Shown piece after piece: positions 8,246-10,428 of a stretch of DNA of 13,444 bases (positions are counted from its first letter, which is position 1; the number at the start of each line of letters is the position of its first letter). The notes beneath the pieces were generated by a model. It made no database searches. It was given only the letters and a program-made list of their open reading frames with translations, and was not told the origin of the DNA. Both the position numbers and the translations under genes were made by a program. Origin of the DNA: Escherichia coli (GTDB lineage: Bacteria; Pseudomonadota; Gammaproteobacteria; Enterobacterales; Enterobacteriaceae); assembly GCF_003334815.1 (NCBI RefSeq), contig NZ_QOWO01000057.1; one strand, given 5' to 3'.

Positions 8246-8503
8246 TTAACGCGGAGAAATCCCGTAATGTGCAATGCAGCGCCAGCCACCATCCTGCTGA
8301 CAATAAACTGATTCCGTATGCCCAGGGATCACCCATTGAATTTCCTCGCCAGGCGGACAGGTCAGCCAAATGCATAACCCGCAGCCGCCGCGTAAATCAC
8401 GGGGAATATCGCTGACGCGAAAAGTCATGCCCGCTGCCTGCAACGCCTTGCGGGTTTGTATGACGCCGACCGTGGAGTGAAATAAAAACAGATACTCTTT
8501 CAT
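8246..8503 (-). CDS. 85-aa DUF3343-like (putative Se/S-carrier-like) small protein, translationally coupled to yjiL
   Basis: Its ATG 8503-8501 overlaps the yjiL stop TGA 8502-8500 (ATGA). The sequence [43 protein letters not shown] fits the F-x-S ... helix ... P-R ... CG pattern I associate with DUF3343 (Pfam Se_S_carrier). It fills the gap between yjiL and the SD-supported yjiK start. Confidence 0.7.
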
Positions 8504-9267
8504 GCGCGTTTTCTCTGCCGCTGACCGATCACCGCCGCGCCAATTGCACCAGCGAATTGCGCATCAGGGTGAGTTTGTACCGGCATTCCCAGATGGCTTT
8601 CCAGCATGTGGGTAAACCTTTGACAGTGGCTAACGCCACCAGTAAACAGAATCGGCGCTTCACAGGAGAGACGAGCAATGAAATTGGCGCTCCGCCGCGC
8701 CATCGCGTTAATCACTCCGGCGAGAATCGCTTCTGGCGCTACGCCCGCAGAGCGCAGGCTGATCACTTCTGATTCAGCAAACACTGTGCACATACTCGTG
8801 ATGGCGTGCGGTATGACATTTTCGGTAATGCTGTCGAGTTGCTCGACGCTGGTGCCAAGCGTGCGCGAGATCACCTCCAGGAAACGCCCGGTGCCCGCCG
8901 CGCATTTGTCATTCATCAGGAAATCGCACAGGTTACCGTCATCATCAAGCTGAATCACTTTGCTGTCCTGACCACCGATGTCGATTACCGCGCGCGTTGC
9001 TGGCTCAAGAAACCGTGCGCCCAGCCCGTGACAGGAGATTTCCGTCACTTGTTTATCGGCAAAATCCACCAGTTGCCGTCCGTAGCCGGTGAGCGTCAGA
9101 AACGGCGTTGTCTCTAACCCTTCGCGCAGAGTTTCCCAGGCTTCAGTAATTGCTGTTGCCGGGCGAAAGGGTGTTGGAACGAGGAAACGGCGCGTAATCA
9201 CGCCGTCAGCCAGTAAGATTCCTTTGGTGGCGGTTGAGCCGGAATCAATGCCAATCGAATATGTCAC
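8500..9267 (-). CDS. yjiL: YjiL, BcrAD/BadFG/HgdC-type ATPase (ATP-dependent Fe-S electron-transfer activator of 2-hydroxyacyl-CoA-dehydratase-like enzymes), 255 aa
   Basis: It has an ASKHA-fold phosphate-1 motif (IGIDSGSTATKG) and cysteines in the contexts NDKCAAGTGRFLE and MCTVFAESEVISL, which are typical of HgdC-type activators. I place the start at GTG 9267 (AGGAG 5 nt upstream; gives the 255-aa K-12 length I recall) rather than at GTG 9273, which overlaps the SD. Confidence 0.92.
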   Translation of the reverse strand: MTYSIGIDSGSTATKGILLADGVITRRFLVPTPFRPATAITEAWETLREGLETTPFLTLTGYGRQLVDFADKQVTEISCHGLGARFLEPATRAVIDIGGQDSKVIQLDDDGNLCDFLMNDKCAAGTGRFLEVISRTLGTSVEQLDSITENVIPHAITSMCTVFAESEVISLRSAGVAPEAILAGVINAMARRSANFIARLSCEAPILFTGGVSHCQRFTHMLESHLGMPVQTHPDAQFAGAIGAAVIGQRQRKRA

Positions 9268-9276
9268 TGCCACTCC

Positions 9277-10428
9277 TTACAGCATCTCAATAAAGGCCGC
9301 GACACGGGTGCTGAGCTGCCCGACATCCGAGGTGGAGTAGTCTGTTTCAATAGCGATATAAGGAATGTTGTGCTGCTGGCGCACATGACGTTTAATCGCC
9401 AGCGATTCCACCGCGTAGGTATGGCACGCCTGCAAAATCACATCAACTACGCCATCGACCTGATATTCTTCAACCATCTGGCTGAGCATTTGCAGGCGCT
9501 GATCGTTCGGCGAAACACAGGAGCAGCCAATCGCCAGATATTTATCCGCCAGCGCGTCGTACACATCACCCGTTTCCGCCACGCATTGCTCGGTGGCTTT
9601 CGCCCCGGTGCAGTTTTCATAACCGACAACCCAGCCGCCATTCTCTTCAATCGCGCGCACCACTTTCTCTGCTGCGCCGCCAATTGGGCAGCCGGTGATT
9701 AAAATACGTGGGCGCGGGTCCAGTCGCTGGCCTTCTTCCCACTGCTGACGAACGCGGGCGGTCATTGCATCCAGTTCATTGATCAACGCCTCTTTATCGA
9801 ACCGGAAGGTTGCGCCGTAGACTACTTTCAGAATGTCGCTGCCGCTAAGCGCTGGAGGATTTAACTGCCCCAAATGATAAAAGTTGGCCAGTGCGCGACG
9901 TTCGCGGTTTTTCAGCGCAATGGCATCGCGCAGAGCATCTTCGCTAATCTCGTGCCCAAAACGTTCTTCTACCGTTTTTTGCAAGCGCAGCATCTCGGCT
10001 TTCCATAATGCACGCGAGGCATCGTCCTTAACGCTGTTTGGCAGTTGCATCACATGAACGGGCTTAAACTCCGCCATGTATTCATACATTTTCTTTTTGC
10101 CGTCGCAGGTGGTTTCACCGACCACCAGATCCGAAAAGTAGAAGTAGGGGCATTTATCGGTTTTGCCGAAGCCGTAGCTACTTTTAATCAGCGGGCAGAG
10201 GTTGCGCGGCAGATCTTTCTCCGCTTCTTCAATGGTTTCATCAGAGGTGGAACAGAGCGAAACCACAACCGCACCGGCTGCCATCGGGATCTCTTGCGGC
10301 ATAAAGGTGCAGTAAGTGCCAACCAGCGGAATGCCGCGCTCCTTGAGATCCATGACGGTGAGAAAGCCTTTCTGGCGAGCTTCAGAGAACTGATCGAAAA
10401 TGGCGGGTAGATCGGTGACAAGTGACAT
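9277..10428 (-). CDS. yjiM: YjiM, 2-hydroxyglutaryl-CoA dehydratase D-component-like (HGD-D family) Cys-rich protein, 383 aa
   Basis: I recognise the ORF as YjiM. It has eleven Cys by my count, in contexts such as TYCTF, NLCPLIK, ETTCDGKKK, ITGCP, ENCTG and QACHTY. I place the start at ATG 10428 (AGGAA 5 nt upstream; gives the 383-aa K-12 length I recall). Only 9 nt separate its stop from the yjiL start. Confidence 0.92.
   Translation of the reverse strand: MSLVTDLPAIFDQFSEARQKGFLTVMDLKERGIPLVGTYCTFMPQEIPMAAGAVVVSLCSTSDETIEEAEKDLPRNLCPLIKSSYGFGKTDKCPYFYFSDLVVGETTCDGKKKMYEYMAEFKPVHVMQLPNSVKDDASRALWKAEMLRLQKTVEERFGHEISEDALRDAIALKNRERRALANFYHLGQLNPPALSGSDILKVVYGATFRFDKEALINELDAMTARVRQQWEEGQRLDPRPRILITGCPIGGAAEKVVRAIEENGGWVVGYENCTGAKATEQCVAETGDVYDALADKYLAIGCSCVSPNDQRLQMLSQMVEEYQVDGVVDVILQACHTYAVESLAIKRHVRQQHNIPYIAIETDYSTSDVGQLSTRVAAFIEML

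Follow-up and report, generated by a model that had tools for sequence, protein, structure and literature searches.

Three closely spaced genes of Escherichia coli, yjiM, yjiL and ytiA, very probably form the two-component double-cubane cluster protein (DCCP) system of this bacterium. They lie on the minus strand of a 13.4 kb stretch of the E. coli chromosome, extending from yjiC to mdtM, which was analysed as a whole (the window). yjiM (positions 9277–10428) encodes a putative class II DCCP of 383 amino acids. yjiL (8500–9273, with the RefSeq start at the GTG at 9267) encodes an HgdC-type ATPase, or 'archerase', the putative ATP-dependent reductase (DCCP-R) of YjiM. The third cistron, ytiA (8246–8503), encodes an 85 amino acid DUF3343 protein that carries the label 'putative Se/S carrier'. 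A first-pass annotation of this DNA had presented yjiL and yjiM as an orphan locus, but this pair is no orphan, and it is not new either; the protein family was described in 2018–2020 and this member was named. A 2020 review places YjiM, together with YjiL, among the seven-Cys proteins of cluster IV and treats it as the putative representative of 'class II' DCCPs (PMC7317905), Haft and Gwadz built the NCBIfam model NF040772 and name YjiM as an uncharacterised member, and the RefSeq label of yjiM already reads 'double-cubane-cluster-containing anaerobic reductase'.

YjiM scores 532 bits against NF040772, a model of that same name (cut-off 350), over profile positions 1–372 of 372, and 408 bits in a full-length match to PF06050 (HGD-D). 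The equivalog models of the 2-hydroxyacyl-CoA dehydratases (HADs) are not reached (HadC 95.8 bits vs a cut-off of 700; HadB 19.9 vs 750), nor are those of the benzoyl-CoA reductases (BzdN 79 bits vs 454; BcrC 59 vs 421; BzdQ 159 vs 380). The closest solved relative by sequence is the DCCP of Carboxydothermus hydrogenoformans (6ENO/7YYL, E=4e-75). BzdN (2.5e-19) and HadC (1.6e-13) follow at a distance, and the E value of the DCCP match is lower than those for BzdN, MbdN and HadC by over 50 orders of magnitude. Judged by its sequence, YjiM belongs to the DCCP family and is no orphan among HGD-D subunits. When family hidden Markov models (HMMs) were run against all six frames of the window, a single gene of the HGD-D type and a single one of the activase type were found, and none of the window genes encodes a CoA-transferase, a CoA-ligase or an acyl-CoA dehydrogenase according to RefSeq annotation and Pfam. 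The first-pass annotation was correct in these respects, and also in counting eleven cysteines in YjiM; what it missed is the seven-Cys double-cubane signature.

Structural comparison of the kind proposed in that annotation gives the same ranking. The AlphaFold model of YjiM, made with an alignment of 44 diverse representatives, has a predicted local distance difference test (pLDDT) score of 95. The top Foldseek matches of this model are 6ENO, 7YZM and 7YYL, with template modelling (TM) scores of 0.92–0.93 (0.93 for 7YZM_A) and a root-mean-square deviation of 1.6 Å. DCCP comes first, followed by BzdN, HadC, BzdO and HadB.

The absence of cluster-ligand cysteines had been named as something that would count against the enzyme, but they are not missing. 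All seven family cysteines are kept in YjiM by alignment (C40, C59, C78, C108, C273, C302 and C335); among the 44 representatives four are invariant and three are conserved in at least 90%. The predicted cluster ligands are C40, C78, C108, C273, C302 and C335, and C59 would be the non-ligand seventh Cys. By counting along the alignment, C59 would match 'Cys94' of the prototype, which is not a ligand, with a numbering that is one off from that of the paper. The spacers between the YjiM cysteines are X18, X18, X29, X164, X28 and X32, and their correspondence to the family pattern rests on the alignment.

YjiL matches PF01869 (BcrAD_BadFG) with 252 bits and the acyl-CoA dehydratase activase model TIGR00241 with 358 bits (cut-off 125). 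Two Cys contexts are present, DKCAAGTGRF (Cys124) and MCTVFAESE (Cys162); these align with Cys127 and Cys166 of HgdC (1HUX, E=1e-52) with identical local motifs. Other solved relatives are HadI (2e-51) and the DCCP-R chain 7YYL_E (5e-47). In the prototypes the counterparts of Cys124 and Cys162 bridge one [4Fe-4S] cluster in a homodimer. On these motifs and profiles YjiL is an HgdC/BcrAD-type electron-activating ASKHA ATPase with both cluster cysteines present, as was seen in the first reading of the sequence. A 'yjiL-mdtM gene cluster' has been tied to uptake of proline-rich antimicrobial peptides (Krizsan 2015, cited in PMC8801401). That effect is probably due to MdtM (11865–13196, minus strand) and is not evidence on the function of YjiL.

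The system most like yjiML is the DCCP/DCCP-R pair of C. hydrogenoformans (CHY_0487/CHY_0488; 6ENO, 7YYL, 7YZM, 7YZQ). The NF040772 family, the fold (TM 0.93) and the seven cysteines are common to this DCCP and YjiM, and in both cases a single HGD-D-type gene stands next to a gene for an HgdC-type ATPase, with no CoA genes. The prototype forms a homodimer, and nothing but DCCP-R with MgATP reduces its cluster. Acetylene, hydrazine and azide serve as its substrates, and CoA esters do not fit into its narrow channels (PMC7317905). YjiM differs in being about 38 residues shorter at 35–37% identity and in having no N-terminal channel-closing helices, and its system differs in the facultative-anaerobe host, in FNR control and in the third gene, ytiA. 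It should be pointed out that the [8Fe-9S] cluster, the homodimer and ATP-dependent reduction have been shown for the C. hydrogenoformans protein only. The homodimeric reductive enzyme of the first-pass annotation is sound in outline, in that a single subunit served by an HgdC-type ATPase would, by analogy, presumably form a homodimer. As an idea it re-derives the published DCCP concept, with family and member already known.

The HAD systems HgdAB and HadBC, with their activators HgdC and HadI (3O3M, 1HUX, 4EHT), are more distant. Their acceptor fold is homologous to that of YjiM (TM about 0.87 to HadC), and HgdC and HadI are homologous to YjiL, with identical cluster-Cys contexts and ATP-driven electron injection in common. 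In HADs, unlike in YjiM, an alpha and a beta subunit form a heterodimer and each carries one three-Cys [4Fe-4S] (or [4Fe-5S]) cluster; these enzymes form ketyl radicals on CoA thioesters and are encoded in operons with CoA-transferases. YjiM, with six predicted ligand cysteines and a seventh, has neither an alpha subunit nor CoA genes. The ketyl-radical chemistry offered earlier for YjiM finds no support in these comparisons (96 bits vs 700 on the HadC model, and six ligand cysteines plus one instead of three), and YjiLM is probably a reductase rather than a dehydratase of a CoA pathway. Class I benzoyl-CoA reductase has two HGD-D-type and two ATPase subunits, whereas the yjiM locus has one gene of each type.

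There is little space between the three genes, and translation of ytiA is coupled to that of yjiL. The RefSeq start of yjiL is 9 nt past the yjiM stop codon; GTG codons at 9273 and 9267 are both in-frame candidates, and an AAGGAG just ahead overlaps the yjiM stop. The ATG of ytiA and the TGA of yjiL overlap as ATGA. The first-pass annotation had listed a DUF3343-like protein among the neighbours; the protein is indeed there, but it is the product of the third cistron of the operon and not of a mere neighbouring gene. Positions 8200–10500 are 100% identical to several RefSeq genomes, and this stretch is found at 80% coverage or more in 5374 of 5426 complete E. coli genomes (99%). Purifying selection acts on each of the three genes, at dN/dS ratios (non-synonymous to synonymous substitution rates) of 0.04–0.2, about 0.04–0.05 for yjiM, and with dS saturated. 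These values, near-universal presence and regulated expression rule out a relic or non-functional gene pair.

Regulation of the operon is known from work by others. Direct activation of yjiML by FNR was found in chromatin immunoprecipitation (ChIP) and expression work (PMC3688515), and yjiML appears again in an FNR-regulon list (PMC12724342). In a regulator mutant, expression of yjiML also drops, together with that of hyc, hyp and pfl genes. Anaerobic switch-on by FNR has thus been shown in the literature, and the region between yjiN and yjiM (10429–10543, minus strand) is presumed to be the FNR-dependent promoter region of yjiML. The yjiM ATG at 10428 has a Shine-Dalgarno sequence, GGAAGGA, 7 nt ahead of it, and no match to the sigma-70 consensus was found in the intergenic region.

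YtiA matches PF11823 with 52 bits (E=5e-14; gathering threshold 25). Residues F8, C41 and G42 are invariant in the family, with Cys41-Gly42 invariant across 16 diverse members. The YtiA model (pLDDT 90) is predicted to have a ferredoxin-like beta-alpha-beta-beta-alpha-beta fold with Cys41 in the loop before strand 3. Searches of YtiA against Protein Data Bank (PDB) sequences gave no significant match, and Foldseek with the model returned only weak PII-like ferredoxin-fold matches (E of 0.015 or higher, TM about 0.5), which suggest a fold class without a functional assignment. The carrier role is a putative one taken from the family label.

A scan of species-representative genomes gave 80 loci that encode YjiM-like proteins, each taken with 8 kb on either side, and their genomic context was surveyed by iterated HMM searches over all open reading frames. 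The YjiM-like proteins of the census are all about 383 amino acids long and 48–92% identical, and they come from Enterobacteriaceae, Aeromonas, many Clostridia, Enterococcus, Fusobacteriaceae and Eggerthellaceae. The activase gene directly adjoins the DCCP gene in 49 of the 80 loci. A DUF3343 gene is present in 24, in 17 of them within 1.5 kb of the DCCP gene, and it is the direct neighbour of the DCCP or activase gene in 19. The order yjiM-yjiL-ytiA is found in all ten gamma-proteobacterial loci. The other nine loci with an adjacent DUF3343 gene are from Firmicutes or Eggerthellaceae and show three gene orders, in which DUF3343 is upstream of either the activase or DCCP, or else stands between the two. 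Identities of enterobacterial YjiM to proteins of Clostridium intestinale, Acetoanaerobium and Enterococcus moraviensis (L011, L013, L015 and others) are 59–68%, unusually high across phyla; this suggests strong constraint, or horizontal transfer of a yjiML(-ytiA) cassette between gut Firmicutes and gamma-proteobacteria.

Further recurrent neighbours are linked to sulfur and selenium (S/Se) metabolism. A cysteine desulfurase or selenocysteine lyase of the TIGR01977/SclA-like type is near DCCP in 14 loci, YedF (TIGR03527) in seven, and a protein of the AIR-synthase/SelD superfamily in five. A set of MtaA-like methyltransferase, corrinoid protein and corrinoid activase is found in six to eight loci. 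This set fits the published 'type I MGC', which has been proposed to recycle methyl-selenide and whose authors note DCCP genes in such clusters. Where at least 5 kb was available on both sides, half of the loci (30 of 60) have one or more S/Se-linked genes (DUF3343, SclA-like, YedF or Mlp-corrinoid). No CoA-pathway family recurs among the neighbours in the 80 loci. A second HGD-D gene is absent from most, and where present it encodes a seven-Cys DCCP paralogue. Haft and Gwadz report that 955 of 970 high-scoring DCCPs are in SelD-containing genomes.

A reciprocal census started from one Firmicute DUF3343 subfamily in metagenomes (L082–L161), of which 41 loci of at least 8 kb were counted; this sample is biased to the subfamily and redundant, with many near-identical gut contigs. 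An SclA-like gene is present in 40 of the 41 loci and YedF in 32. The DUF3343 gene is almost always last in a string of SclA-like, YedF and DUF3343 genes, often with a gene of the AIR-synthase/SelD superfamily upstream. Clusters of DUF3343, YedF and Sec-lyase-like genes have been described before (Lin et al. 2015, PMC5322559). YtiA likewise belongs to PF11823 and has the invariant Cys-Gly, and the Firmicute DUF3343 protein adjoins an SclA-like pyridoxal phosphate enzyme and YedF, sometimes also DCCP and activase. The E. coli ytiA gene differs from these clusters in being detached from SclA-like and YedF genes and coupled only to yjiML. DUF3343 is a general component of an S/Se-relay module, and DCCP systems are joined to this module in some cases.

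Several variants of the DCCP arrangement were met in the census. In one fusion protein (P0146, 703 amino acids) activase and DCCP are in one chain, and P0145, P0147 and P0150 (656–867 amino acids) have two HGD-D/DCCP-like stretches in tandem; these four proteins are probably the fused 'class III'-like forms of the review. In Lachnospiraceae and Bariatricus, YjiM-like domains about 51% identical to YjiM are followed by a C-terminal PucR-type helix-turn-helix (PF13556) in proteins of 713–722 amino acids (P0122; L068:8001-10142, L071:8001-10142, L077:8001-10184, L079:8001-10154), with no activase within 8 kb. Such proteins may be transcription regulators that use the DCCP domain as a sensor. That these open reading frames are DCCP-activase fusions is ruled out by the helix-turn-helix found with Pfam. 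Loci L028, L037, L053 and L054, where the DCCP gene is at about 8001–9150, have no HgdC-type activase and no other match within 8 kb. L078 lacks an activase and has three DCCP copies, and L060 has an activase. The activase-free loci (L028, L037, L053, L054 and L078) raise the question of what reduces DCCP there.

A working scheme for the E. coli system can be drawn from the solved homologues. A YjiL homodimer would hold one bridging [4Fe-4S] cluster on Cys124 and Cys162, take an electron from a low-potential donor of the cell and dock on YjiM. ATP binding, hydrolysis and product release in YjiL would then push the electron uphill into YjiM. YjiM, as a homodimer without a second HGD-D-type subunit, would bind an [8Fe-9S] double-cubane cluster through C40, C78 and C108 of the N-domain and C273, C302 and C335 of the C-domain, with C59 at the opening. 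In its super-reduced state this cluster would reduce a substrate that is beyond the reach of ordinary cellular reductants.

What this substrate might be is suggested by gene context. The overlap with ytiA, the adjacency of DUF3343 across phyla, the S/Se-linked neighbours, and the SelD and methyl-selenide links in the literature make an S/Se role for YjiLM plausible, and a sulfur- or selenium-containing species handled by YtiA is the best present guess at the substrate. A more specific and quite tentative proposal, possible but short of an even chance, is that the substrate or the bridging cluster atom is a sulfur or selenium species passed via Cys41 of YtiA. In one version, the energised double-cubane cluster would reductively release or transform a chalcogen species that YtiA carries on Cys41 or receives there. 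This species could be Se(0), a persulfide, a perselenide or an organo-S/Se compound, and the selenide or sulfide from it would feed anaerobic selenoprotein or cofactor synthesis. In the other version, YtiA would be the source of the ninth S (or Se), the bridging one, in the [8Fe-9S] cluster. No substrate or phenotype of YjiM, YjiL or DCCP was found in the literature, and the search for a published YjiLM substrate, which the first-pass annotation had called for as a check, likewise turned up no assignment.

A number of observations weigh against a DCCP system with an S/Se connection. The cluster, the homodimer and ATP-driven reduction are assigned to YjiM by transfer from a thermophile protein with 35–37% identity. 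The published seven-Cys pattern, written as a literal regular expression, has no match in YjiM; it fails because of small indels and slightly shorter spacers. YjiL is not nearer to DCCP-R than to HgdC or HadI by sequence. In the yjiN-yjiM intergenic region no FNR box (TTGAT-N4-ATCAA) was found at two or fewer mismatches. Degenerate matches with three mismatches exist there, e.g. at 10515–10502, and matches across the window are at chance level. As to the S/Se context, no activase lies within about 8 kb of the DCCP gene in 26 of the 80 loci, and no DUF3343 gene in 56. In the reciprocal census DCCP and activase were found in only one of 41 loci (L127, directly downstream), and DUF3343 is therefore not a dedicated partner of DCCP. 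Lastly, about 36 N-terminal residues of the prototype are absent from YjiM, whose alignment begins at residue 62 of 6ENO and whose own start falls at about residue 36–62 of the prototype. This agrees with a published remark on the absent channel-closing helices, and the substrate channel of YjiM may therefore fit a CoA ester.

The last point is the main argument for a different function, in which YjiM, as a class II DCCP with an open channel, would take an acyl- or aroyl-CoA that enzymes from other loci make and reduce or dehydrate it. Those who solved the DCCP structure themselves propose a CoA ester, or some other substrate of larger size, for YjiM on the basis of the missing N-terminal helices (PMC7317905), and BzdN is a precedent for a double-cubane subunit within CoA-ester chemistry. 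However, the window has no CoA-transferase, CoA-ligase or acyl-CoA dehydrogenase and no catalytic alpha-type (HadB/BzdO) subunit, the HAD and benzoyl-CoA reductase equivalog scores are far under their cut-offs, and the recurrent neighbours in the 80 loci are S/Se-trafficking and corrinoid methyltransferase genes with no CoA enzymes. This function is rather unlikely, and a 2-hydroxyacyl-CoA or aroyl-CoA substrate is not favoured.

BzdN also provides the model for another possibility, that of half an enzyme. BzdN of BzdNO (8S02) and MbdN (9G87) have, like YjiM by analogy, an HGD-D fold with an [8Fe-9S] double-cubane cluster and an HgdC-type ATPase as electron supply. BzdN, unlike YjiM, is a non-catalytic electron store with a catalytic partner, BzdO, two different ATPase subunits and a CoA-ester pathway; YjiM has no BzdO-like partner nearby and reaches 79 bits vs 454 on the BzdN model. 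That YjiM likewise stores or transfers electrons for a catalytic partner at an unlinked locus is very improbable: the [8Fe-9S] cluster of BzdN does store electrons for BzdO, and BzdN is the second-best solved relative of YjiM, but the much closer relative, the C. hydrogenoformans DCCP, is a catalytic homodimer, conservation extends to the seventh Cys, at the opening of the cluster, and most of the 80 loci are without a second HGD-D gene, the extra copies being seven-Cys DCCP paralogues. E. coli K-12 is not known to have another PF06050 protein.

The minus-strand genes in RefSeq are mdtM, yjiN, yjiM, yjiL, ytiA, yjiK and yjiJ. YjiN is a DUF445 protein, YjiJ and MdtM are transporters of the major facilitator superfamily (MFS) and YjiK is an SdiA-regulated protein, in agreement with the neighbours named in the first-pass annotation (RefSeq, Pfam). 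The remaining products are DUF2686, IraD, HypT (LysR), IadA, YjiG/YjiH (Gate) and KptA. YjiN occurs together with YjiM in Enterobacteriaceae only and is not always adjacent, and YjiK, YjiJ and MdtM are not conserved neighbours; yjiK, which is not conserved at the locus in other genera, is a neighbour in 2 of the 80 loci. The longest yjiK open reading frame (7321–8292, minus strand; 323 amino acids, ATG at 8292) overlaps the end of ytiA. The RefSeq start at 8181 is 37 codons downstream and gives 286 amino acids, with a 64 nt gap after ytiA that has no terminator-like hairpin. The yjiK gene may be co-transcribed with yjiML-ytiA. Positions 500–1500, between yjiC and iraD, are AT-rich (GC 0.33 vs about 0.5 elsewhere) and have only small annotated open reading frames (ytiD, idlP). 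IraD (1562–1963) has a Pfam match to the phage baseplate protein gp25.

DCCPs bring to three the known classes of ATP-driven, nitrogenase-like low-potential reductases, and their function was still called unknown in the 2025 literature. What is added here is ytiA as a coupled third cistron, and the recurrence of the triad in distant anaerobes near selenocysteine-lyase-like, YedF and methyl-selenide-type genes. With yjiML present in 99% of complete E. coli genomes and under FNR control, the search for a DCCP substrate is most tractable in E. coli. If the YtiA-linked S/Se chemistry is true, the physiological role of the double-cubane proteins would for the first time be open to study in a genetically tractable organism, E. 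coli.

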